Assembly (NCBI GenBank): GCA_016933055.1
Contig: JAFGBS010000008.1
Coordinates: 30,001-62,000 of the forward strand
Origin: Promethearchaeota archaeon
GTDB taxonomy: Archaea > Asgardarchaeota > Lokiarchaeia > Sigyniarchaeales > Promethearchaeaceae
Direction: 5' to 3'
DNA: 32,000 bases
The translations under genes were made by a program, and so were the position numbers. Below are positions 2,245 to 28,117 of this stretch, piece after piece (the stretch's first letter is position 1; each line of letters starts with the position of its first letter). The notes under the pieces are model-generated. The model ran no database searches and had not been told where the DNA came from. It saw only the letters and a list, made by a program, of their open reading frames with translations.

Positions 2245-2793
2245 ATGACTAGTCATATGGCACATAAATCCGAGATGCACAGCTATGTGCAAATAACTCT
2301 CTACTTGGTATTTGCTGGTGGGATGATTGCATTGAATTATTTTATTCAATTTTTTAACATATCGGTGGTTGCTCCGTGGGTAGAATCTAGATGGGGGCAC
2401 ATATTAATTATAAATGGGCTATATTTATCTCAAACTCCCATTAACATGACAGAATTCGTTGGATCAATTATAGCGGTAGGAATCACATATCTTATTAAAT
2501 TTTTCTTGGATAAATTCATAGTGTTTAAAAATCGCGACGCTACCCTTAAAACCACAAGTAAACAGTTTTTGATCTATTTTGTCTTGGCCGTATTTACGAC
2601 CTTAGAAAATGTTGGAATTCAACTTCTGTTTACAAATGTATTTGGAACTCCTCTGGTGGTAAGTGTAATAACTGCGTTAAGTGCGGGTTATATAACGAAA
2701 TATTTTCTTGATAAGAGATTTGTGTTTCCAAATACCACTTTAAATCAAAAAGAACAACCAAAAGTCGATCCTAACAATCAAACTATAACTTAA
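2245..2793 (+). CDS. GtrA-family lipid-linked sugar flippase
   Basis: Four hydrophobic helices with twofold internal repeat (ITYLIKFFLDKFIVF / ITKYFLDKRFVF). Start moved from 2095 to ATG 2245 because AAGGAG at 2231-2236 precedes it and 2095 overlaps DUF362 by 137 nt; ATG 2224 is an alternative. Confidence 0.75.
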   Translation: MTSHMAHKSEMHSYVQITLYLVFAGGMIALNYFIQFFNISVVAPWVESRWGHILIINGLYLSQTPINMTEFVGSIIAVGITYLIKFFLDKFIVFKNRDATLKTTSKQFLIYFVLAVFTTLENVGIQLLFTNVFGTPLVVSVITALSAGYITKYFLDKRFVFPNTTLNQKEQPKVDPNNQTIT

Positions 2794-2888
2794 ATCCACA
2801 TTTGCCCGTTATAAATCATCCTTGATCGATTGGTAAACTATAAGCTTTCATGATGATTTTTATTTAGGAAAAAACAGATGGATACTTA

Positions 2889-5800
2889 ATGAATTATCTT
2901 GGTTTAATTGGGGGAGCCTTTGGATCATATCTATTTGGATCCATTCCTTTGGCTTATATCTCTACATACATAATTAAAAAAGAAAATATTACTGAAATAG
3001 GATCCAAGAGTATAGGAGTTCAAAATGCATTCACCTCGGGTGGTTTAGCTGCGGGAATCATCACTGTCATAGGGGAGATATCCAAAGCCGTAGTACCAAT
3101 ACTAATTGCATTTTTATTCTTTAATACAGGTTTCCTAACCTTTATTGATTTCTTGTTAGGATATCATAATAGGCATATCGCGTTTTTATTTGTTGGATGT
3201 AGTTTTCTAGGAACAAATTTCTCATTATTTATGAAATTCAAAGGTGGGATGGGATTCACTATCACAATTTGGTCCTTACTATTATTAGCACCAATAGCTT
3301 TATTGATAATGGCAGTAACCATACTGAGTTTAACTGCTATTTATCGTAGCTATGCTAAAGCAAACCTAGTTATGGAGAAATCTAAGTATTTGATTTCCTT
3401 ACTGCTTTTGGTTTCCACCATATGGACTCCGTACTGGTGGTCGGCTTTTTTATTTGGGTTAACAATCTCTATCACATATTTCCTTAAACGCAAACAAAAT
3501 TTAGAAGAAATTCGGGTAATTACATCACGAACATTTCAACCAAAATTACGAAAATTAAAGGAATATTATAAAAAAAATCCCCGGTATGTATTTTTTTTAG
3601 AAGATTTAGGTAAGGAAAATAACGTTGGTAACAAAGCAAAAAATATCTCCTTTCTAAACCGCAAGGGTTTTCGTGTTCCAGAATCTATCGTAATCACATA
3701 TACTGCTTTTATTGATTATCAAAAAAACCGGGAGGATCTATTATTTCATTTAAATCAGGAATTGAGGGCATATATTAAAGAGGGGATCAAATATACAGTT
3801 CGTTCTTCAGCGAATTATGAAGATACCATGGAATATTCTTTTGCAGGCCAATATCTAACCTTCTTGAATGTAACAACATTAAAAGAACTGATTCTAAAAG
3901 TCTCTCAAATCTGGGATTCTGCACTCACATCTAATAACAACGTCTATACCCAAATTCTAGTTAAAGATAAGCAAACCATAAAAATGGGAATCGTAATTCA
4001 AGAGATGATAGATCCACAATTTTCTGGAGTTGTTTTTACGAGAGATCCTGTTTACAATCTTAATGAAGTAATTGTGGAAATTGTAGAAGGTTTGGGGGAC
4101 ATTTTAGTACAAGAAGGCGTTACGCCCGAATGTTGGGTATTCAAATGGAATCAATGGTTGAAAGTACCAGATGCAAACAAGGTTGATGTCCTAGAACAAA
4201 TTGTTAAGGAAGCAAAAAAAATCGAAAAGAAGTACGGTAAACCCGTGGATCTGGAGTTTGCGTATGATGGAAAGGAGATTTTCTGGCTACAATTGCGGGA
4301 TATAACCACTATGAAACATGCACGCCTATATTCCAATAAGATTTCAAAAGAATTCCTGCCTGGTATGATAAAACCCCTAGTTTTTTCTGTAAACATACCT
4401 GTTGTGAATTCATCATGGAAGAAAATATTCAGACAACTCATTGGTTTTCCTGCCAGGCAGATTGACGTAGATCATCTCACAAAGTCCTTTTACTATCGTG
4501 CTTATTTTAATATGGGAGTTATTGGAGATATATTCCAAGTTGTAGGAATGCCACGTGATCTTCTGGAAATTCTCGCTGGTATTGATGTCGAGAATGTTGA
4601 AAAACCCAAATTTAAACCAAGTATAATTACCCTTAGGTATTTACCACGAATGATAGTTTTTGGGATCAAACTCTTTCTTTTGTCCAAAAAGATAGAAAAA
4701 CATCTACGGACCTATCAGAAAAAATATAATATACTAGAAAATAGTCTTCACAAATCTGCAAATATCAAAACTTTGTTTTCCCAAGTTGACAAATTGTTCA
4801 AGTTAACTATTCGTTCATCATATCTCGTCATTTTATCTCAGTTACTCAATAGTCTCTACACGGGGATTGTACGGAAACGACTCGAAAAAACGAAATACTC
4901 ATTTGAAAAGATAAATTTCACTCTCCTAAATCCTCGGATTAAATATCAAGATTTTCGAACTTCTATGGAAAAAATTCACAATCATTTCACTACTTTGAGT
5001 CCACATGCTCAAGAAGTCATCAAATCGATGAGTTACGACCAGCTTAGTAACTATTCTGAATATGGAGAATTTTCATCATTGATTTCTGGATTTATGTTAC
5101 GGTTTGGATTTTTGCGAGAAAGTGGTAATGACTTCTCAATCCCTGCTTGGATAGAAATTCCAAATACCGTACTAAAAATGCTAATCAATTTTTCTTCCCC
5201 CAAATCAACAAATTATACTCCTGTAGAAACAGAAAAAATAATCGCTGAAGTATTTAGTTCTCCTCTATCCCGTTTTCTTTTTAATCGATCTCTCAAATAT
5301 CAAGAATATCGTGAATCCGTGAACCAATTGTATATGTATGGATACGGACTATTTCGTCCCTTCTTTCTGCAAATCGCTGAAATTTTTGTAAAAGAAAACA
5401 TGATCAGCGAAATTAATGATATTTTCTATTTAACCTATGATGAAATTCAGGAATTAGCCTCTAATAAAAGCATGGTAGATCACTATCAGCATCAAATCGA
5501 TGAACGCAAAAAAGAAATGGAAAAATACAGAGACATATTTCTCCCCGAAATAATTTATGATGACACTCCTCCAGAACCCTTATCTGCTGAAAGATCAAAT
5601 AAGGTGCTAAAAGGTGTAGCGACTTCTAGAGGAATATATGTTGGTAAAGTTAAAGTCGTAAAAAGCCTAGATGACTATGATAAGATAAAAGAGGGAGATG
5701 TACTTGTTATTCCTTATTCTGATATCAGCTGGACGCCTTTATTTGCAAAAGCTAAAGCCGTGGTATCAGAATCTGGGGGTATTCTCTCTCATTGCTCTAT

Positions 5801-5945
5801 AGTTGCACGGGAATATAAAATCCCTGCCGTTGTATCCGTAAATGGAGCATTGACTCTTAAGGATAATACAATTGTTGTAGTAGATGGTAATTCGGGTATT
5901 ATTTCCGTCGTTAACGAAAACATCACCGAGGAAAAAAACGAATGA
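2889..5945 (+). CDS. Fusion: PlsY-like (G3P acyltransferase fold) membrane domain + PPDK/PEP-synthase ATP-grasp + central substrate domain + C-terminal phospho-His swivel domain (RPH/PigC-type layout)
   Basis: aa 1-210: YLFGSIP, GSKSIGVQNAF, GEISKA, FKGGMG (PlsY pattern). aa ~235-475: GNKAKN, GFRVP, VRSSANYED, SFAGQY, VIQEMI, SGVVFTRDP, VDLEFA, LQLRDIT. C-terminus: SESGGILSHCSIVAREYKIPAV with His968 (CAT 5790-5792). Confidence 0.85.
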   Translation: MNYLGLIGGAFGSYLFGSIPLAYISTYIIKKENITEIGSKSIGVQNAFTSGGLAAGIITVIGEISKAVVPILIAFLFFNTGFLTFIDFLLGYHNRHIAFLFVGCSFLGTNFSLFMKFKGGMGFTITIWSLLLLAPIALLIMAVTILSLTAIYRSYAKANLVMEKSKYLISLLLLVSTIWTPYWWSAFLFGLTISITYFLKRKQNLEEIRVITSRTFQPKLRKLKEYYKKNPRYVFFLEDLGKENNVGNKAKNISFLNRKGFRVPESIVITYTAFIDYQKNREDLLFHLNQELRAYIKEGIKYTVRSSANYEDTMEYSFAGQYLTFLNVTTLKELILKVSQIWDSALTSNNNVYTQILVKDKQTIKMGIVIQEMIDPQFSGVVFTRDPVYNLNEVIVEIVEGLGDILVQEGVTPECWVFKWNQWLKVPDANKVDVLEQIVKEAKKIEKKYGKPVDLEFAYDGKEIFWLQLRDITTMKHARLYSNKISKEFLPGMIKPLVFSVNIPVVNSSWKKIFRQLIGFPARQIDVDHLTKSFYYRAYFNMGVIGDIFQVVGMPRDLLEILAGIDVENVEKPKFKPSIITLRYLPRMIVFGIKLFLLSKKIEKHLRTYQKKYNILENSLHKSANIKTLFSQVDKLFKLTIRSSYLVILSQLLNSLYTGIVRKRLEKTKYSFEKINFTLLNPRIKYQDFRTSMEKIHNHFTTLSPHAQEVIKSMSYDQLSNYSEYGEFSSLISGFMLRFGFLRESGNDFSIPAWIEIPNTVLKMLINFSSPKSTNYTPVETEKIIAEVFSSPLSRFLFNRSLKYQEYRESVNQLYMYGYGLFRPFFLQIAEIFVKENMISEINDIFYLTYDEIQELASNKSMVDHYQHQIDERKKEMEKYRDIFLPEIIYDDTPPEPLSAERSNKVLKGVATSRGIYVGKVKVVKSLDDYDKIKEGDVLVIPYSDISWTPLFAKAKAVVSESGGILSHCSIVAREYKIPAVVSVNGALTLKDNTIVVVDGNSGIISVVNENITEEKNE

Positions 5946-7177
5946 TCATTTTCAGTATAAAAAATGCTTTTCGCAAAAAGGGAACTGCGATTTTGGCTTC
6001 TTTAGGAGTCGCCTTTGGACTAATGTTAGTATTCGTCGTTTCCGCTTTCACTGCAGGACTAAAAGTTCAATTTGAAGATAATTTAACTCGAACTCTGGGT
6101 ATTGTTAACGTCATTGAAACATCTGAAATCGGTCCAGAAAGTAAACTACCTATAGATATCGTAGAAAAAATATATGCTACTGAGGGAATTGGGGGTTCCA
6201 TATTAGGGTATAATGTTGAAACTCAGGCACCATTTCTTTTCACAGTGGAGTATGCAGACAAATTACGAAATACTGGAGATGCAATTGCTCTTTCGGGTTT
6301 AAATGCTAGTATTGATGAAGAATGGGAGGGTTATACAACGAACCTAATAGAGGGAAGATCATTCATCCCAGGGCAAAACGAAACAATAATTGGAACGAAT
6401 TTGAGAGATATAGCCCAATTTCCTGTAGAAATTGGGGATATAATTGAACTTACTTTGAATCCAATCAATGCAACTCGTGTGAACTTGACTATTGTCGGAG
6501 TATATCAAAGTATAAATGATGGTACTCCTGTATTTGTGCCCCAAAATTATTTTATTTACACAGACATCCAATTTATTTGGGATATGTTAGCTGAAGTAAA
6601 TAAGACTATAAATACCTATAGTTTGGTTCAATTTCGCTTCGATGTGAGAAGTAATTTAGAAACCAATCAATTTGTAGAGAAAATTAATAATGCATCTGAA
6701 AACGGGGATTTTAGTCCGACCTATGTATCCGCTTTTGCTTTAGCAACGTTTTATGAAGCTGTAGAGGAAAATCTAAGCGTTATTGATACTTTCACAGCCG
6801 TTCTGGGGGTGATAACTATCTTAGCTGGGGGTATGGCAATCATTGTTACCCAGTTGATGTCGGTCTCTTCACGGATGAAGGAATTTGCCATTCTGAAAGC
6901 AACTGGGTGGAAAAATGTTCATATTTTCGTAAATATAATATTGGAATCATTAACTCTTAGCCTTTTAGGGGCAATAATTGGGATAGGAATCGGATTTGGA
7001 ATGATATTTTTACTGAGTGGGGAATCCAGTCCCTTTGGGGCAGCTCCTGCTATAGTGAATTTTATCGAACTGATAAAAGTGTTTGTTTATGCAATCAGTT
7101 TAGGCATACTAGGGGGTCTATATCCTGGAATTAAAGCAGCAAGAGTGAGACCAGTGGTTGTTTTAAAGAACGAGTAG
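5942..7177 (+). CDS. ABC transporter permease, MacB/FtsX/LolE family
   Basis: One N-terminal TM, large extracytoplasmic domain, then three TMs with SSRMKEFAILKATGW and GGLYPGIKAARVRPV motifs; ATGA overlap with upstream stop. Confidence 0.9.
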   Translation: MIIFSIKNAFRKKGTAILASLGVAFGLMLVFVVSAFTAGLKVQFEDNLTRTLGIVNVIETSEIGPESKLPIDIVEKIYATEGIGGSILGYNVETQAPFLFTVEYADKLRNTGDAIALSGLNASIDEEWEGYTTNLIEGRSFIPGQNETIIGTNLRDIAQFPVEIGDIIELTLNPINATRVNLTIVGVYQSINDGTPVFVPQNYFIYTDIQFIWDMLAEVNKTINTYSLVQFRFDVRSNLETNQFVEKINNASENGDFSPTYVSAFALATFYEAVEENLSVIDTFTAVLGVITILAGGMAIIVTQLMSVSSRMKEFAILKATGWKNVHIFVNIILESLTLSLLGAIIGIGIGFGMIFLLSGESSPFGAAPAIVNFIELIKVFVYAISLGILGGLYPGIKAARVRPVVVLKNE

Positions 7178-7192
7178 GAGTAAAGGTTGATT

Positions 7193-7900
7193 ATGTTAAT
7201 TAAATTAGAGCAAGTAAGCAAAATTTATGGAGAAAAAGAGACAGAAATACGTGCATTAGACGGAGTTGATTTGCAGATCGATTTTGGTGAAGTCGTAACC
7301 ATCATGGGCCCCTCTGGTTCTGGAAAAACAACATTGTTAAACGTTATTGGGGCTATGGATTCTCCTACAAGCGGAAGAGTGCTGATCAATAATCGAAATA
7401 TTGCTAATTTACCAGAAAGAAGTTTATCGGAATATAGGAAGAATATACTTGGTTATATATTTCAAAATTTTTATCTTCTTCCCAATATAGACGTGTTAGG
7501 AAACGTATTGGTTCCATTAGTGCCGTACATAATACGAGAGGAGAGTAAACAACATGCTATCAGCTTGCTAAAAAAAGTTGGATTAGAAGGTCGAGAAAGT
7601 AGTAAAGTAAGTAAATTATCGGGAGGAGAATCCCAACGAGTAGCAATAGCACGCGCTTTAATCAATAATCCACGAATAATTCTTGCAGATGAACCAACAG
7701 GGAATCTTGATTCCAAAACGGGGAGGAATATAATCGATCTTCTTCTAAAATTGTCATATGAAAGGAAAACCGTCATCATTGTTACTCATGATCCTCGGAT
7801 CGCACATACTGTTTCAGAGCACAAAAAAGGTCGAAATATCTGGATAAAAGATGGAAAACTTATCCAGGACCCCGATTTTGATATTTACGAATGGGACTAA
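7193..7900 (+). CDS. ABC transporter ATP-binding protein, LolD/MacB family
   Basis: Walker A GPSGSGKT, Q-loop IFQ, signature LSGGESQR, Walker B ILADEPTGNLD, switch VTHD; ATG 7193 preferred over TTG 7187. Confidence 0.95.
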   Translation: MLIKLEQVSKIYGEKETEIRALDGVDLQIDFGEVVTIMGPSGSGKTTLLNVIGAMDSPTSGRVLINNRNIANLPERSLSEYRKNILGYIFQNFYLLPNIDVLGNVLVPLVPYIIREESKQHAISLLKKVGLEGRESSKVSKLSGGESQRVAIARALINNPRIILADEPTGNLDSKTGRNIIDLLLKLSYERKTVIIVTHDPRIAHTVSEHKKGRNIWIKDGKLIQDPDFDIYEWD

Positions 7901-7915
7901 TTTCCATGATTATTT

Positions 7916-8770
7916 TTATTCATCTTCACAATAATTTTCCCCATCTCCATAAAGAAAGAAATCTCGAGTTAATTTTGCATTTGGAATAATTGAGTATTTC
8001 CCTAAATCACAAATCCCGTTTAGCATTAAAATCTCATCATCTATGAAAAAATTCCCCGTAACTTCATTACTCGGCTGAGTTAGAATGAGATAGGCAGCAT
8101 CCGCTACTATTTCCGGTTTTCGGGATTGTTTCATTATGGCATCTCCCCCTAAAAGGTTTTGAATTGCAGCAGTTCCGATTGCTGTGCGAGGCCATAGTGC
8201 ATTAACTGCAATCTTGTCCTTCTTAAACTCCTCTGCAAGACCTAAAACGCACATAGACATGCCGAATTTACTCATCGTATAGGCTAAACTACTTTGAAAC
8301 CAACGGGAATCCATATGAAGTGGTGGTGAAAGCATCAAAATATGTGGGTTTTCTGCTTTTCTTAAGTAAGGAATAGCTTTTTGAGAACACATAAAAGTAC
8401 CTCGAAGATTCACTGATAACATTAAATCAAATCGTTTCATGGGAGTTTGAAGCGTTGGAGTGAAACTGATAGCAGATGCATTATTAACTAAAATATCAAT
8501 TCCACCAAACTGGTTAATTGTTTCAATGATTGCATACTCAACTTGATCTTCAAACCGTATATCTGTTATTAAAGGAATTGCATCCCCCCCTTCCCGTTTA
8601 ATTTCTTCAACTGCAGTATATACAGTTCCAGGTAACTTAGGATGTGGTTTTGAGGTTTTTCCGATTACAGCGATCTTTGCCCCATCTTGTGCAGCTCGAA
8701 TTGCAATAGCTTTACCAATTCCCCGGCTACTTCCAGTAATGAATAGGACCTTATTCTTTAATGAGTTCAT
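7916..8770 (-). CDS. Short-chain dehydrogenase/reductase, HSDL2-like (no SCP2 domain)
   Basis: TGSSRGIG, KTSKPHPKLPGTV, NNASA, YTMSKFGMS, NALWPRTAI motifs characteristic of the HSDL2 subfamily. Confidence 0.9.
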   Translation of the reverse strand: MNSLKNKVLFITGSSRGIGKAIAIRAAQDGAKIAVIGKTSKPHPKLPGTVYTAVEEIKREGGDAIPLITDIRFEDQVEYAIIETINQFGGIDILVNNASAISFTPTLQTPMKRFDLMLSVNLRGTFMCSQKAIPYLRKAENPHILMLSPPLHMDSRWFQSSLAYTMSKFGMSMCVLGLAEEFKKDKIAVNALWPRTAIGTAAIQNLLGGDAIMKQSRKPEIVADAAYLILTQPSNEVTGNFFIDDEILMLNGICDLGKYSIIPNAKLTRDFFLYGDGENYCEDE

Positions 8771-13384: not shown

Positions 13385-14239
13385 ATGAAAGAAATTCCTC
13401 TCTATCAAGTCGATGCGTTCACCTCAGAACGCTTTCGAGGTAATCCTGCTGCAATTTGTATTCTGGAATCGAAAGATGATCTAACAGATGCCGAAATGCA
13501 GCAAATTGCCGCTGAAATGAACCTTTCTGAGACCGCATTTATTATCCCAATGTCTGGAGACCATTGTGATAATTTTCAACTCCGTTGGTTCACTCCAAAA
13601 GTGGAAGTTAGTTTATGCGGTCATGCTACTTTGGCAAGTGCACACGTATTATTCAAAGAATTAAAAGTATGCCGTGAGGATATACATTTTCAAACGCAAA
13701 GTGGGGAATTGGTAGTGAATCATTTGGGTGATAGATACCAAATGGATTTCCCCTTGGGAAATCCAACGCCTTCAGAAGTCTCGGATTTATTGTGTAAGAA
13801 CTTAGGGATACAACAGAACCAGATCATTTCCACCTTTAAAAATGAATTCAAAGGAGAATTAGTAGCGGTATTTGAGGTTATTTCTGCCGAAATTGTAAAA
13901 AATTTGAATCCAAATTGGACAGCATTGGTAAACTCGAAATATAATTTGGATTTTGGAGGAGTTTATGTAACTGCTAGAAGTGATAATGAAGATGTAGATT
14001 TCGTTTCCCGATGTTTTTTCCCTTGGGTCGGCATACGGGAAGACCCGGTTACGGGTTCCGCACACACTGTACTAGGACCTTTTTGGCAATCTAAACTGGG
14101 TAAAAATAAGTTATTTGCATATCAAGTTAGTGATAGGTTAGGGGAAATCTGGATGGAAATCCCAACGGACAATCCTAATAATAGAATTTTCATACAAGGA
14201 AAAGCAATAACTGTTTTAAAAGGTACATTAATTATTTGA
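13385..14239 (+). CDS. PhzF-family epimerase/isomerase
   Basis: QVDAFT, GNPAA, EMNLSETAF, LRWFTPKVEVSLCGHATLA, EDPVTGSAH motifs. Confidence 0.95.
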   Translation: MKEIPLYQVDAFTSERFRGNPAAICILESKDDLTDAEMQQIAAEMNLSETAFIIPMSGDHCDNFQLRWFTPKVEVSLCGHATLASAHVLFKELKVCREDIHFQTQSGELVVNHLGDRYQMDFPLGNPTPSEVSDLLCKNLGIQQNQIISTFKNEFKGELVAVFEVISAEIVKNLNPNWTALVNSKYNLDFGGVYVTARSDNEDVDFVSRCFFPWVGIREDPVTGSAHTVLGPFWQSKLGKNKLFAYQVSDRLGEIWMEIPTDNPNNRIFIQGKAITVLKGTLII

Positions 14240-17266: not shown

Positions 17267-19192
17267 TTGGCAACAATTCAATTTACAATCTCAAATATTG
17301 ATCTGGAGGATTTTTCCGCAAAAAGAACAATCTTAAAGATGTCTTTAGGCATTATTCTGGTGTTCGATTTGGGAAAACCCGAAACCTTCCAGAACCTTAA
17401 AAACCACATGTTTGAAATCACCCAAAATGCTGGATATATCCCCATCATTCTCATGGGCACAAATAAAGAAATCGAAGAAGAAATGGGAGAACTCATTCCA
17501 AGCATGGATATTGATCAATTCATGTTCAAGTATGGCATTAACCATTTTATCAAAATATCAATGAGTACGGGTGAGGGCATTCGGCGAGCATTTGAGGTGA
17601 TATCGGATGAAATCATTAAAGAAACCATTCGAAAATTAGGTCCCGATGAAATTAAACGAAAAACTCAATTCAGCTATGCAATTGCAATGATCGGGGATAA
17701 AATTATTCGAAAAGATTTAATCTCGGAATATGATTCGGCACGATTTGCCGCTCCAACCTCGACTATGGGTGGTGCGATTTCTCGAAAAACTTTAGATCGT
17801 GATATTCACCACCTAATTCCGGAACCGCGTATGGATAAAGATCTTCCTCCAGCTGTCTCTCCTCAACCCGAAGCAGAACTTGGTAAACCCACCGAATTAA
17901 AAAAAGATATTGAGGAATTAAGTGATGAAATCATCGAAAAAATAGCTATAACGGAAAGATTGCAAGCAGAGATCGACACAGAACAACAGAAACTGGAAGA
18001 AATCGTTCAAATGAAACAAGAGGTAAAAGAACCAAAAAAAGAAACGATTTCTGGTGATGAAATTCGATTAGAAAAACCCAAACCTTTAGCTCCGATGAAA
18101 TTCAAAGAGACCGAGGAGGATATTGAGTTACCCTCGGATTTAAAGGATGCCATCGAAAAAGAAGTCAAACGAGTCCGATCAGAAATTGCCGATGAAGAAA
18201 AAAAGGAAAAGATAATTGGAACATTGACACCATCAAGTGCTCCTCCTCCACCGCCACCAGGGTCTCCTCCTCCGATTGTTTCACTGGAGGAAAAACCAGA
18301 ACCTATATCTCCTCCAAAACCAAGAATTGTGGAAAAACCACGATTAAAAGCGAAAAAGCAACGAAAATTGGCTGAACGGGGAAAAAGTGAAATGGAGTCA
18401 ATGGCTGAAGAATATATTTCAGAACCATCCACAGTACCAGAACCTTTTATGGTAGTTGAAGAAGAAGTAGAAAAGGTGGTTACAGCCGAAAAACCACCGG
18501 AAGATTTCACTTGGGGAGGGGCAGAAAAAGCTCCTCACATGATGGAAATTACTACCGAGAAATTAAAACGGAAAACTACCGTGTTTTATCGAGAACGGAT
18601 GAATCCGGAAACTTTGAATAAGTTGGCGGTAGTATTATCGACAGAAAAAATTTATGAGAAATTAAAAATTACAATTGAGGAAGTCGCTCGAGCCGCGACA
18701 GACAAGATATTGGAGATCGATAAGGATCTTCCAATTGTGGATGTAGTACCAGAATTTCCGGGTTGCGTATGTGTTCCTTCAGTGCAACATATCAATGCAG
18801 AAAAGGAATATGATGTTGCATCCTTTCTAATTACACCGCTTCAGACGGGGGAAATTCCCGATGCCAAGGTGAAGTTGTACCATAAGGGACAATTGATTGA
18901 GACGATTCCAACCCCAACAAAGGTAGTGAAAACTACAAGTGCTAAGATATCGGCAGGTTTTGCAATAATCGTACCACTATTATCTCAATTTCCACTGATA
19001 TCAAATCCCATAAGTAATTTTCTAGGAGGCCTCATACCGTTTTACGAAACTGTTGGAGGAATCGAAGGAATCATATTGATGTTAACTGCATTATTTGCAG
19101 CTTTGAGCGGGTTATTATTTTTATTTAAAAGACCAAAAGATGCAAAACCCGTTGAAACTTTCCCAGAAATTGATGATGTCTTAAACAATTGA
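17267..19192 (+). CDS. Membrane-anchored multidomain protein: degenerate and apparently permuted small-GTPase fold, coiled-coil, Pro/Glu/Lys-rich linker with polyproline, uncharacterised beta domain, C-terminal hydrophobic anchor
   Basis: GIILVFD...ETFQNL, PIILMGTNK, KISMSTGEGIRRAFE (Ras beta4 to alpha5), followed by YAIAMIGD...STMGGAISRKTL (Ras beta1 to beta2); PPPPPPGSPPP at 18242-18274; hydrophobic aa 561-576 and 601-620. TTG start uncertain. Confidence 0.7.
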   Translation: MATIQFTISNIDLEDFSAKRTILKMSLGIILVFDLGKPETFQNLKNHMFEITQNAGYIPIILMGTNKEIEEEMGELIPSMDIDQFMFKYGINHFIKISMSTGEGIRRAFEVISDEIIKETIRKLGPDEIKRKTQFSYAIAMIGDKIIRKDLISEYDSARFAAPTSTMGGAISRKTLDRDIHHLIPEPRMDKDLPPAVSPQPEAELGKPTELKKDIEELSDEIIEKIAITERLQAEIDTEQQKLEEIVQMKQEVKEPKKETISGDEIRLEKPKPLAPMKFKETEEDIELPSDLKDAIEKEVKRVRSEIADEEKKEKIIGTLTPSSAPPPPPPGSPPPIVSLEEKPEPISPPKPRIVEKPRLKAKKQRKLAERGKSEMESMAEEYISEPSTVPEPFMVVEEEVEKVVTAEKPPEDFTWGGAEKAPHMMEITTEKLKRKTTVFYRERMNPETLNKLAVVLSTEKIYEKLKITIEEVARAATDKILEIDKDLPIVDVVPEFPGCVCVPSVQHINAEKEYDVASFLITPLQTGEIPDAKVKLYHKGQLIETIPTPTKVVKTTSAKISAGFAIIVPLLSQFPLISNPISNFLGGLIPFYETVGGIEGIILMLTALFAALSGLLFLFKRPKDAKPVETFPEIDDVLNN

Positions 19193-25528: not shown

Positions 25529-26767
25529 TTATTCATAAATTTTTTCATCGGGTGCTTCGCTTTCCTTAGCATCCATTTCTACGTCCCGGATATTCTCCTC
25601 CCTTTTCAGGAGTTCGTTGAAATATTCGTGCTGAATTATTAGATTCATGACTTCACTGGTTCCGGTCCAAATAGTGGATAGACGTATATCTCGAAATATG
25701 CGCTCTATGGGAAATACATTGGTATATCCAATTCCCCCGAGTACTTGCATTGCGTTGGAAATTATTGTCGTAGCGGATTCGGTACTAAATCGCTTTGCTT
25801 CAGATACTAAACGTCTGCAAATCGACCCTGGTTGATCAGAATCAATAGCTTTAGCGGTTTGGTACACCATTGCCCGACTGGCATCTAGTAACATAATCGA
25901 ATCAGCGAGTCGAAATGATACTCCTTGGAAGGATTTGATTGTTTGCCCGAAAGCTTTACGTTTATGTGCGTATTTCGTTGCAATTTCCAAAGCCGATCTA
26001 CTCATTCCTAGCGGTCCCGCTGCAGATGTCATTCGTTCAGGAATCATCATTTGATAAAATATTAATCCCCCTTTTCCTTCGGCTAATACCAAATTTTCTT
26101 CTGGTACTTGAACGTCTTTCATGAACAATCGACCTGCACCTCCTCCTCGAGTCCCCAACAATCCATAGATATACTTACTTTCTACGCCCATATCCCGTTC
26201 CACTATAAAGAGGGAAATGGAATCCCGTGGAGGGGAATTCGGATTTGTTTTAGCATAAACCAAGAAGAAGTCGGCGCCTTCAGCACCGACCACAAACCGT
26301 TTTTGCCCATTGAGAATATAATGATCTCCATCTTTTATGGCAGTTGTGGTGGCACCGAAGAAGTCGGAACCACCTCTTGGTTCCGTGAGTGCTTCAGCAG
26401 TGCTTATTTTTCCCTCCAACATGGGTCTCAAGTATTTTTCTTTTTGTTTATCGGTCCCAAATTTATCCAAGGCTTCCCCACAAATACTTGGTAGAGAATA
26501 TAAACATCCCAATGACATAGGAAGCAGTCCGATCTCTTCTAATACAGCAGTTTCGGTAATCCAACCTAAACCTTGTCCCCCCCACTTTTTTGGAAACCTT
26601 AATCCCAGTAAGTTATATTCGGCTAATTTCTTAACGTATTCCGTCGGATATTGGACTTTATCTTCATCCATATCCAGAATCAACTGACGAGGTACTTCCT
26701 TTTTAACAAATTCTTTTGCTTTGTCTTTCCATTTAACGGATTGTTCATCCAGCATAAAGTCATACAT
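25529..26767 (-). CDS. Acyl-CoA dehydrogenase
   Basis: [52 protein letters not shown] motifs; CTTAAA box at 26792-26797 upstream. Confidence 0.95.
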
Positions 26768-26929: not shown

Positions 26930-28117
26930 ATGAATGCATTAGACAGAGTCCACAAAACCATTGATCACGAAGAACCCGATAGAATTCCGAGTTTTGAAGC
27001 CAGTATTGATAATATTAAAATATGCCAATACTACGGAGAAAATTATGATATGGAAAGTACTGCATCTATGCAAAAGCTTCTTTATAATCTGTGTTTTGGA
27101 AATGCAAGACTTATGAATCGAATAATCAAGCGTATGGAGAAGTCTAAATACTTCACCAACATGATGGTTAGGGGTGCATCAAAATTATATCGGAAAATTG
27201 GATTGGACATCTGCGCGACACCGTTAGCATTATTTCCAACAACCTACACTAGAGAGGGGATCGTGGATGAATATGGAAGACGGATGGATTATAAACTGAA
27301 TCCCTCGGATGGCATGACAATGCTTTATTACATGGGTGGCGCTTTTGATACATTTGAGGAATATCAAGAATATCCCTCCCTGGATCCCGACCTAGAACTC
27401 CGAGAAAGATTGTTTCGAGCGGGAAAACAATTAGAAAAGGAATACGATTATGAAATTTTCATGATTCCCGCTATTATGGGGATGATGGAAGCTACTTGGG
27501 AGGGATTTGGGCTTCAAAACTTCAGTAAATTACTTGCACATCCTTCTCAAGCGAAACGAGTGTTTGATGATCGTGGAAAATTTGCAGTGGAAATGGTAAA
27601 ACGAATTCTAGAGTGGGGTGAGGAGACTGCTTTATTGATATACGACGATTATGGATACAAAAAAGGACTTTTTATGAGACCTCGCAATTATCGGGAATAT
27701 GTAATTCCATGGTTGAAAAGAATTTGTGATACTGCTCATAAAGGTGGAGTAAAAGTATTATTACATTCTTGCGGGGATAACTACAAACTGCTAGATGATA
27801 TTATTAATGCCGGAGTGGATGCATTACACCCTATAGAACCCACAACTGCGAACCCTGAATATGATATTTTCAAATTGAATGAAAAATATGGGGAAAGGTT
27901 GTGTTTTGTCGGAAATGTTAGCCCTCAAGATTTGTCTGACAAAGAACCTGATTATATTCGCGCTTACACAAAAAAGTTGATTAAAAAGGTAGCTCCTGGA
28001 GGAGGATTTATTCTCAGTTCTGGTCATAGCATCAATCCCGCCGTAAAATTAGAAAATTTTCTCGCTATGCGGGAAACGCTTGCAAAATATGGAAACTATC
28101 CCATCACTATGGAATAA
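26930..28117 (+). CDS. Uroporphyrinogen decarboxylase (URO-D)/MtaA-CmuA family protein
   Basis: NALDRV...HEEPDRIP, YDDYG, LLHSCGD, DALHPIEP, GNVSPQ, GGGFILSSGHSI motifs. Confidence 0.88.
   Translation: MNALDRVHKTIDHEEPDRIPSFEASIDNIKICQYYGENYDMESTASMQKLLYNLCFGNARLMNRIIKRMEKSKYFTNMMVRGASKLYRKIGLDICATPLALFPTTYTREGIVDEYGRRMDYKLNPSDGMTMLYYMGGAFDTFEEYQEYPSLDPDLELRERLFRAGKQLEKEYDYEIFMIPAIMGMMEATWEGFGLQNFSKLLAHPSQAKRVFDDRGKFAVEMVKRILEWGEETALLIYDDYGYKKGLFMRPRNYREYVIPWLKRICDTAHKGGVKVLLHSCGDNYKLLDDIINAGVDALHPIEPTTANPEYDIFKLNEKYGERLCFVGNVSPQDLSDKEPDYIRAYTKKLIKKVAPGGGFILSSGHSINPAVKLENFLAMRETLAKYGNYPITME

Follow-up and report, generated by a model that had tools for sequence, protein, structure and literature searches.

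A PlsY-fold membrane domain fused to an RPH-type dikinase in an Asgard archaeon, encoded beside a MacB-type transporter

The fused gene and its two halves

The stretch of DNA analysed here (the window) comprises 32,000 nt of the forward strand of contig JAFGBS010000008.1 (positions 30,001-62,000) in assembly GCA_016933055.1 of a Promethearchaeota archaeon, an Asgard archaeon of the Lokiarchaeum family group whose genome of 3.76 Mb is 91% complete. The glutamine synthetase encoded in the window is nearest to those of Candidatus Lokiarchaeum ossiferum (64%), Harpocratesius (62%) and 'Promethearchaeota' MAGs, and the named groups in the phylum of the host are Loki-, Thor-, Heimdall-, Hod- and Odinarchaeota. 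We are concerned with a gene at 2889-5945 on the + strand, hereafter the fusion, whose frame of 1018 residues contains 0 internal stops in translation. In the encoded protein a membrane domain with the fold of PlsY, the acyltransferase of glycerol-3-phosphate (G3P), is followed by an ATP-grasp domain, a helical domain of ~420 amino acids (aa) and a C-terminal swivel domain carrying His968, and this second part has the layout of rifampin phosphotransferase (RPH). The features of the fusion, several of them placed by comparison with the Listeria enzyme (RPH-Lm), are as follows.

2889..5945, +: whole fusion gene, 1018 aa (open reading frame, three Pfam domains, 45 fused homologues, AlphaFold2 (AF2) model)
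2889..3533, +: PlsY-fold membrane domain, aa 1-215, with the G3P clamp lost and the phosphate-hole loop kept (PF02660, profile match to 5XJ5, residue census)
3000..3035, +: motif-1 loop GSKSIGVQNAFT, aa 38-49, counterpart of PlsY GSGNxGATNxxR, with Thr41 replaced by Gln and Arg45 by Thr (alignments; PMC5700162)
3237..3260, +: loop-3 FKGGMGFT, aa 117-124, with the phosphate-hole glycines kept and Lys104 replaced by Met121 (alignments; PMC5700162)
3615..4322, +: ATP-grasp nucleotide-binding domain, aa ~243-478, with Lys249, Arg305, Thr324 and Glu456 (PPDK_N, NF004508 over the stretch 243-478, RPH-Lm alignment)
4323..5588, +: central, mostly helical acceptor domain, aa ~479-900, counterpart of the rifampin-binding domain (DSSP of the model, Foldseek match to 5HV1, Pfam Rph_4th on relatives)
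5310..5315, +: Arg808-Glu809, counterpart of RPH-Lm Arg666-Glu667, predicted second-phosphotransfer site (alignment)
5589..5918, +: phosphohistidine swivel domain, aa ~901-1010 (PEP-utilizers, alignment to RPH-Lm 765-866)
5790..5792, +: codon of His968, predicted phospho-carrier (aligned with RPH-Lm His825)

In Pfam, the membrane domain matches G3P_acyltransf (PF02660) at residues 13-207 (E 3.7e-25, 89 bits against a cut-off of 24), the best stretch of PPDK_N lies at 292-418 (E 1.5e-36) and PEP-utilizers covers 933-1003 (E 3.5e-21); the TIM-barrel domain for phosphoenolpyruvate (PEP)/pyruvate (PF02896) has no match in the protein. The top NCBIfam matches are RPH-like PRK06241 models, rifamycin phosphotransferase and PigC/RedH, all far under their cut-offs. 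An AF2 model built on 46 fused homologues (pLDDT 82.5, pTM 0.62) is aligned by Foldseek with Listeria rifampin phosphotransferase (5HV1) over ~900 columns (E 1.5e-32) and with Aquifex PlsY (5XJ6) at a TM-score by target of 0.71. An initial annotation, made from the sequence alone, had described one uninterrupted 1018-aa frame with this four-part architecture; the open reading frame, Pfam and the AF2/Foldseek comparisons bear it out, and every structural point in it was correct.

A mis-assembly or a stop between the domains, which the initial annotation had named as grounds for abandoning this description, was looked for and ruled out. Among the best 120 relatives, 45 further proteins of ~980-1025 aa, from independent assemblies, are also fused, and four of them are 56-64% identical to the fusion and of equal length. 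Moreover, a separate 27.6-kb Logan contig from the probable source run, a sediment metagenome, spans positions 2500-8000 with 0 differences and 0 gaps. Because of these fused homologues in independent assemblies and this gap-free, identical contig, mis-assembly is excluded. A hot-spring metagenome generated in another study contains short contigs identical to 2500-3127, 3788-3916 and 7674-7902, which places this strain, or one almost identical to it, in a second sample. Nothing in two metatranscriptome runs of the source study matched the stretch, which says nothing about expression.

Mutagenesis of RPH-Lm has assigned Lys22, Arg117 and Thr136 to the first phosphotransfer, Glu297 to Mg coordination, Arg666-Glu667 to the second phosphotransfer and His825 to the role of carrier (PMC4844700). 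In a phmmer alignment these essential residues map to Lys249, Arg305, Thr324, Glu456, Arg808-Glu809 and His968 of the fusion. They are well represented in the 46 fused proteins (Lys249 in 41/46, Arg305 in 44/46, Ser/Thr324 in 44/46, Glu456 in 45/46, Arg808 in 42/46 and Glu809 in 38/46), and the motif SHCSIVARE, whose His968 had been singled out beforehand as the phosphohistidine, is present, with this histidine invariant (46/46). Because each residue that is essential in RPH-Lm has its counterpart in 38-46 of the 46 proteins, the kinase half is predicted to be active, as a catalytically intact RPH-type dikinase with its acceptor site in the central domain. This helical domain is the most conserved part of the family, with many invariant columns across the 46 fused homologues.

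The order ATP-grasp, helical acceptor and C-terminal swivel, without a TIM barrel, is that of RPH-type enzymes, and the RPH/PigC-type arrangement proposed earlier for the fusion is recovered by Pfam, by alignment and by the Foldseek match to 5HV1. The protein does not qualify as an orthologue of rifamycin-inactivating RPH (NF041857, 209 bits against 999; NF000283, 149 against 1700) or as a PigC/RedH equivalog (200.6 and 188.6 bits against cut-offs of 1300/1350). An ordinary PEP synthase or pyruvate phosphate dikinase was also considered and rejected, as there is no TIM barrel, the His domain is C-terminal and not in the middle, and the score against TIGR01418 is 189 bits against 740.

For the N-terminal domain, a phmmer search of the PDB with that domain alone missed PlsY and gave one chance match, to a sugar ABC permease; a family profile was needed, and it matches Aquifex PlsY (5XJ5) along its entire length (E 6e-17). 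Against the PlsY equivalog TIGR00023 the fusion scores 68.8 bits, under the cut-off of 137.2. In PlsY, the G3P pocket consists of a phosphate clamp (Ser35, Arg45, Lys104 and Asn180) together with Ser142 and His177, the latter contacting the 2-OH, whereas acyl-phosphate sits in a 'phosphate hole' formed by the backbone of residues 104-107 and His92, with Thr41 binding the carbonyl; in the Aquifex enzyme, substitutions of Arg45, Asn180 and His177 cut activity by >90%, and Lys104Arg keeps 25% (PMC5700162).

We compared these positions column by column in 36 canonical PlsY, 49 fused domains and 4 separate partner proteins. The G3P-pocket residues are kept in all 36 canonical PlsY, apart from Lys104 to Arg in 2 and a gap at His177/Asn180 in 1, and the canonical proteins likewise retain the residues of the acyl-phosphate site. 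In the fusion, Ser35 corresponds to Ser39, Arg45 to Thr49, Lys104 to Met121, His177 to Arg201, Asn180 to Asn204, Arg183 to Glu207, His92 to Thr109 and Thr41 to Gln45. Across the 49 fused domains, the Arg45 position is most commonly Gly and never Arg, that of Lys104 is mostly Gln/Met (Lys in 3), that of His177 is Tyr and never His, that of Asn180 is Gln/Ser/Thr, that of Arg183 is Asp/Glu and that of Ser35 is Thr/Ser. By this residue census, neither the fusion nor the fused domains as a group possess the G3P pocket of PlsY; what the fused domains retain is Gly102, Gly103 and Gly105 (44-48/49), Asn37, Asn42 and the D/E-x-x-K motif. As some half of the almost invariant columns in the PlsY-like domain fall within two active-site loops while the G3P residues have changed, the pocket is under selection yet rebuilt, with a lipid-phosphate site plausibly retained and the G3P site gone.

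Near-obligate coupling of the kinase to a PlsY-like partner

The genetic coupling of this kinase to a PlsY-like protein is near-obligate. The best 120 relatives comprise 46 fused and 74 unfused proteins, the latter of ~780-810 aa. A scan of one genome per species returned 587 relatives, from which 80 loci were kept and combined with 10 fetched earlier; with family membership set at E <1e-140 against a profile of the kinase part, 28 distinct loci were obtained. The PlsY-like domain is fused or adjacent in 26 of these 28; the remaining two loci are contigs of 3.9 and 5.3 kb. In unfused loci a PF02660 gene of 239-277 aa directly adjoins the kinase, for instance in Thorarchaeota SMTZ1, a Lokiarchaeota metagenome-assembled genome (MAG), a Bathyarchaeota MAG and a 316-kb bacterial-looking contig. 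Among the loci examined, a PlsY-like partner was absent from generic RPH-like genes such as those of Lentzea, Paenibacillus and Arthrobacter.

The family is found in bacteria (among them Pirellulales, Anaerolineae/Chloroflexia, Ignavibacteria, Saccharibacteria, Thermotogaceae, Clostridia and Cloacimonadaceae) and in archaea (among them Bathyarchaeota, Heimdallarchaeota and Methanomassiliicoccaceae). Three clusters in the ESM Atlas, with 235, 155 and 73 members, come mostly from Cyanobacteriota, and they confirm the cyanobacterial fusions that the initial annotation had put forward as possible. In a kinase tree (FastTree, as for all trees here), the fused and unfused states change into one another at least six times, although some of these changes may reflect truncated gene calls, and the clade of four fused proteins that includes the fusion is sister to 15 unfused Loki-type kinases. 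In the PlsY tree, all fused domains fall into one clade (99%), joined by 27 short non-canonical PF02660 sequences, and a second clade, long-branched and lying on the canonical side (100%), is made up of the partners encoded by separate genes. Two divergent PlsY-like lineages, the fused type and the separate-gene type, thus serve interleaved clades of one kinase family, which argues strongly for a joint function of the two parts. In a Thermotogaceae MAG (L022:5890-8875) the PlsY-like part and the kinase part occupy different frames that overlap by ~135 nt, and this is either a frameshifted fusion or a pair of overlapping genes.

The genes on either side of the fusion are the following.

5942..7177, +: MacB/FtsX-type ABC permease, 411 aa (FtsX PF02687 and MacB_PCD PF12704)
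7187..7900, +: ABC ATPase of MacB/LolD type, 237 aa (ABC_tran PF00005, E 7e-35)
67-2793, directly upstream of the fusion: UbiA prenyltransferase, DUF362 protein and GtrA-family protein

The ATG of the permease overlaps the TGA of the fusion (ATGA at 5942-5945), and on the strength of this arrangement the two genes are taken to be translationally coupled. A four-helix FtsX permease with a MacB periplasmic core and a separate ATPase is what characterises a MacB-type transporter, and both are present here; the NCBIfam matches of the permease (MacB/LolCE) and of the ATPase (LolD/MacB-like) are all far under cut-offs. Of the 28 family loci, 16-17 have such an ABC pair beside the kinase module, the gene order varying and the ATPase travelling with the permease; among them are those of a 63%-identical relative (L010) and of three further Asgard genomes. 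HlyD-type adaptors occur in 6 loci with bacterial versions of the module. A complex prediction for the PlsY-like domain (aa 1-215) and the permease scored 0.00 and gave no verdict. On the upstream side, an AT-rich gap of 95 nt with TATA-like stretches separates the UbiA, DUF362 and GtrA genes from the fusion. These three genes were considered as part of the module and rejected, being missing from L010 and from the other loci; a UbiA-DUF362 pair lies 5-7 kb upstream of the module in one Loki relative (L004).

Other genes recur around the module. A ferrochelatase/CbiX-like protein of ~410-437 aa, with three predicted N-terminal membrane helices, is encoded inside or beside it in 8 bacterial loci (L014, L016, L017, L025, L027, L030, L039 and L040; e.g. 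L039:13074-14300), sometimes between the kinase and PlsY-like genes. One query found no homologue of it in the host genome, and none lies beside any Asgard copy of the module examined. Alpha/beta-hydrolases recur in 6 loci, including three Asgard fused loci; a 570-aa member directly follows the fused gene, in convergent orientation, at three pump-less Asgard loci (L006:9956-11674, L015:2869-4587 and L134:7170-8888), and PGAP1-like esterases are present in two bacterial modules (L008 and L039). These recurrent hydrolases fit ester-lipid or fatty-acid chemistry. A Staygreen gene (Mg-dechelatase family) adjoins the module in a Bathyarchaeota MAG (L009:5113-5508). Elsewhere in the window are a PhzF-family gene (13385-14239), an acyl-CoA dehydrogenase gene (25529-26767), a URO-D-like gene (26930-28117) and, at 17267-19192, a gene for a 641-aa protein whose N-terminus corresponds to the second half only of a Ras-family GTPase domain.

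PlsY-like genes across the Asgard archaea

We surveyed 400 Asgard genomes, which are MAGs of varied completeness and include related genomes that are not independent samples, scoring the kinase as present at E <=1e-60 to the kinase of the fusion. PF02660 occurs in 158/400 genomes and the fusion-like kinase, patchily, in 17/400. Three classes of PF02660 gene can be told apart. Class I (~215-260 aa; families f12-f15 and f18) has the complete canonical clamp in the example loci. Class II consists of frames of 402-425 aa (family f3, in the order to which the window belongs) with PF02660 in the N-terminal half and a C-terminal half of ~200 aa without a Pfam match; its clamp is partly kept (Thr35, Arg/Lys/His45, Gln/Lys104 and His177). 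A class II gene is present in 77/135 genomes of f3, with up to four same-strand copies within ~7 kb (examples are L125:687-7500, on G270:C6, and L126, L127 and L128). Class III is the kinase-coupled type, in which the clamp is lost. The proposal that all Asgard 'PlsY' proteins are partners of the kinase was rejected, because most PF02660 genes in the phylum census belong to the other classes.

DegV/FakB genes occur in 71/400 genomes, exclusively in families f12-f18 and often with more than six genes per genome (f13, 31/31; f15, 12/12; f18, 12/12; f16, 10/22), and they were found in 0/13 genomes of f1 and 0/135 of f3. Within f16, the ten DegV genomes are those with PF02660, except the one carrying the kinase. 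Canonical PlsY with an intact clamp is confined to families that also carry FakB/DegV, and in one f18 genome (L130:3778-6560, equivalent to ~63.8-66.6 kb of G082:C6) genes for a FakA-like protein (Dak2 + FakA_M, 330 aa), DegV/FakB (290 aa) and a canonical-clamp PlsY (245 aa) form a co-oriented cluster, followed by a GT87-like gene. In five sampled class I genomes, Dak2 was present and PlsX was not found. Some Asgard lineages thus look like carriers of a complete Fak-PlsY acyl-phosphate route; our literature search found no published link between Asgard archaea and fatty acid kinase or DegV.

In the host genome, the fusion is the sole PF02660 gene (class III), three PlsC-family genes and the geranylgeranylglyceryl phosphate (GGGP) synthase GGGPS are present, and neither PlsX nor DegV/FakB was found in the 91% of the genome that is covered. 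A genome of the same genus (G131; locus L131, on G131:C120) has, instead of the fusion, an unfused ATPase-permease-kinase-partner operon, whose kinase is 46% identical to that of the fusion and whose partner belongs to the other PlsY-like lineage. The census also shows that the module is missing from most of the host's family, closed genomes included. The low identity of the G131 version and this absence from most of the family point to a module that has been exchanged and not vertically inherited, that is, to an accessory and horizontally moving one.

In the literature on the lipid divide, PlsY homologues of Asgard archaea are counted among lipid genes of bacterial type, without distinguishing between classes. 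For instance, Thorarchaeota SMTZ1-83, which has been cited as a case of PlsY, carries a clamp-less PlsY-like gene directly after such a kinase. The initial annotation had likewise held that the presence of the fusion in an archaeon bears on the lipid divide, and our data reverse this view: as the module is patchy in Asgard archaea, distinct from canonical PlsY and widespread in bacteria, the fusion is accessory in nature and provides no evidence of membrane lipids of the bacterial type. Sorting PF02660 genes into canonical ones with Fak, the 405-aa form and kinase-coupled ones shows which Asgard lineages could acylate glycerol-phosphate, and by that sorting the host is not among them. Annotation pipelines label proteins of this family 'glycerol-3-phosphate acyltransferase PlsY' or 'pyruvate, water dikinase'.

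A possible reaction scheme and comparison with known systems

The reading that we favour, with a probability of about 0.42, is that of a membrane-integrated enzyme of two modules, in which a hydrophobic substrate would be phosphorylated, a group transferred to an acceptor other than G3P and the product passed to the MacB-type pump. The ATP-grasp domain would pass the ATP beta-phosphate to His968, and the swivel domain would bring it to the acceptor site at Arg808/Glu809, where a hydrophobic, membrane-associated molecule would be phosphorylated, with AMP and inorganic phosphate (Pi) as by-products; the substrate could be a fatty-acid carboxylate, giving an acyl-phosphate, or a lipid or prenyl alcohol, giving a lipid phosphate. 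The PlsY-like domain would then take over the lipid phosphate and probably pass the hydrophobic group to a non-G3P acceptor, releasing Pi. This acceptor is probably neutral or cationic, because Arg45 and Lys104 have been lost and Asp/Glu183 gained. Finally, the MacB-type transporter may extract or export the product, so that the net reaction would be an ATP-driven lipidation without coenzyme A or acyl carrier protein. The earlier suggestion that a membrane-bound, lipid-like substrate is phosphorylated finds support, as an idea. A more specific version, which we find doubtful, is an undescribed lipidation machine in which the dikinase makes a fatty-acid or allylic-prenol phosphate, the PlsY-fold domain acylates or prenylates an acceptor other than glycerol-phosphate and MacB exports the product; if it were true, Asgard archaea, cyanobacteria and many uncultured bacteria would possess an undetected lipid or lipidated envelope component.

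Several observations weigh against this two-module scheme. That the PlsY-like domain performs a transfer, as opposed to mere binding, is pure inference. The His92 position is Thr in 32/49 fused domains (Thr109 in the fusion) and that of Thr41 is Ala in 44/49 (Gln45 in the fusion); since these residues respectively bind acyl-phosphate and hydrogen-bond its carbonyl in PlsY, acyl-phosphate may not be the ligand. We know of no member of the dikinase family that phosphorylates a carboxylate, the known acceptors being hydroxyl or enol groups. Export, in turn, is not obligatory, because 7 fused loci have no ABC transporter nearby.

Some of these points would suit an enzyme that is simply a kinase of a lipid alcohol (polyprenol, dolichol, phytol, geranylgeraniol or an archaeol-type alcohol), with the PlsY-like part serving only as an anchor that keeps the lipid, or the monophosphate made from it, in the conserved phosphate hole, and no transfer taking place. 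The characterised relatives all phosphorylate hydroxyl or enol oxygens, the loss of Thr41 and of the whole G3P site suits a carbonyl-free ligand and a reaction that has no acceptor, and the module is shared by archaea and bacteria, which have polyprenyl-phosphate carriers in common. The initial annotation had proposed phosphorylation of a polyprenol or archaeal lipid, and as a rival this stays alive; the part that did not hold concerns the UbiA and GtrA genes suggesting it, which adjoin the fusion together with DUF362 but are not conserved with the module, being missing from all other loci as well as from L010, with the UbiA-DUF362 pair near the module in L004 as the closest parallel. The newly conserved polar residues (Tyr177 and Asp/Glu183) suggest a working second site, and the predicted second-phosphotransfer site at Arg808/Glu809 lies in the central and not in the membrane domain; a kinase without transfer is on balance unlikely. 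Less probable still is a detoxification module, in which the kinase would inactivate a membrane-partitioning antibiotic or toxin, the PlsY-like domain capture it from the bilayer and the pump expel it. MacB-type transporters are classic resistance and efflux systems, albeit that the scores here to MacB/LolCE are far under cut-offs; the closest solved relative of the fusion is an antibiotic-resistance kinase, RPH; the spread of the module resembles horizontal transfer (17/400 Asgard genomes, and a merely 46%-identical, unfused version in G131); and one fused locus adjoins a Vgb-lyase-like gene. However, the RPH model is matched at 209 bits against a cut-off of 999, the central domain is strongly conserved across phyla, which would be unusual for a xenobiotic pocket, and the fusion has been kept in hundreds of cyanobacterial species, which suggests an endogenous substrate; why capture should need a PlsY fold with a preserved phosphate hole is also left unexplained.

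Two further readings appear improbable. The module might handle tetrapyrroles or pigments, activating or re-esterifying a tetrapyrrole or an isoprenoid tail (e.g. chlorophyll-derived phytol) together with a chelatase-like protein and an esterase, the pump removing the product. The chelatase-like membrane protein of the 8 bacterial loci, two of which also have PGAP1-like esterases, the Staygreen gene of the Bathyarchaeota locus and the action of PigC-type relatives on pyrroles speak for it, but the chelatase-like link is restricted to bacteria, and we consider this reading a slim prospect. Slimmer yet is a self-contained route of bacterial type, in which the kinase would make acyl-phosphate and the PlsY domain would acylate G3P or glycerol-1-phosphate to lysophosphatidic acid, leading to ester phospholipids. 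An activating enzyme fused to a PlsY fold is indeed what such a route would be expected to look like, the host has three PlsC-family genes with neither PlsX nor FakB found, and bacterial PlsY accepts both glycerol-phosphate stereoisomers (PMC13400652). Against it, four of six G3P-binding residues are replaced, with a charge reversal at Arg183, the TIGR00023 score is half its cut-off, and the canonical-clamp PlsY of Asgard archaea pairs with FakA/FakB and not with this kinase. The making of acyl-phosphate in place of PlsX/Fak, as initially suggested, is not supported as a route to lysophosphatidic acid, the clamp being gone (Arg45 to Thr, Lys104 to Met, His177 to Arg and Arg183 to Glu).

The module of kinase, PlsY-like protein and MacB pump spans Asgard archaea, Bathyarchaeota, Methanomassiliicoccales, Chloroflexota, Cyanobacteriota, Planctomycetota, the candidate phyla radiation and others. 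We found no studied member of it, nor any published description of a PlsY-like/dikinase architecture, the papers containing both 'PlsY' and 'dikinase' doing so only incidentally; what it acts on is probably a membrane molecule that present lipid maps lack. If the favoured two-module scheme is true, the fusion would represent the first case of an RPH-type dikinase joined to a membrane enzyme, and of a PlsY-fold protein that uses another acceptor.

Among known systems, RPH-Lm (5FBS/5HV1; NF041857) and the PigC/RedH/HapC, HpeHI and PRK06241 dikinases have their domain order in common with the fusion, and the likeness to RPH-Lm extends to the ~900-column fold match and to counterparts of Lys22, Arg117, Thr136, Glu297, Arg666, Glu667 and His825. 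In contrast to these enzymes, the fusion is only ~19% identical, its equivalog scores are far too low (209 against 999 for RPH, 200 against 1300 for PigC), it has a seven-helix PlsY-fold N-domain found in no characterised member, and its family is partnered by PlsY-like proteins and a MacB pump. With PlsY of Aquifex aeolicus (5XJ5-5XJ9) it shares the fold, the full-length profile match, loop 3, the Asn37/Asn42-type loop and D/E-x-x-K, whereas the fused domains have a replaced G3P clamp (with Asn180 variable), His92 changed to Thr and Thr41 to Ala/Gln, and form a clade of their own, separate from canonical PlsY. The FakA/FakB-PlsY route resembles what is proposed for the fusion in that an ATP-dependent step yields a lipid phosphate beside a membrane enzyme of PlsY fold; however, its kinase is non-homologous (Dak2/DegV there, ATP-grasp/His-swivel here), it ends in acylation of G3P, and in Asgard archaea the Fak genes occur in families largely different from those with the fusion-type module. 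The neighbouring transporter recalls the MacB/LolCDE/HrtBA type VII systems, with its FtsX + MacB_PCD permease, its LolD/MacB-like ATPase and, in bacterial versions, the HlyD adaptor, but its equivalog scores are far below the cut-offs of that group and the host archaeon has no outer membrane. Judged by its equivalog scores and its G3P-site residues, the fusion belongs functionally to neither the RPH nor the PlsY family.

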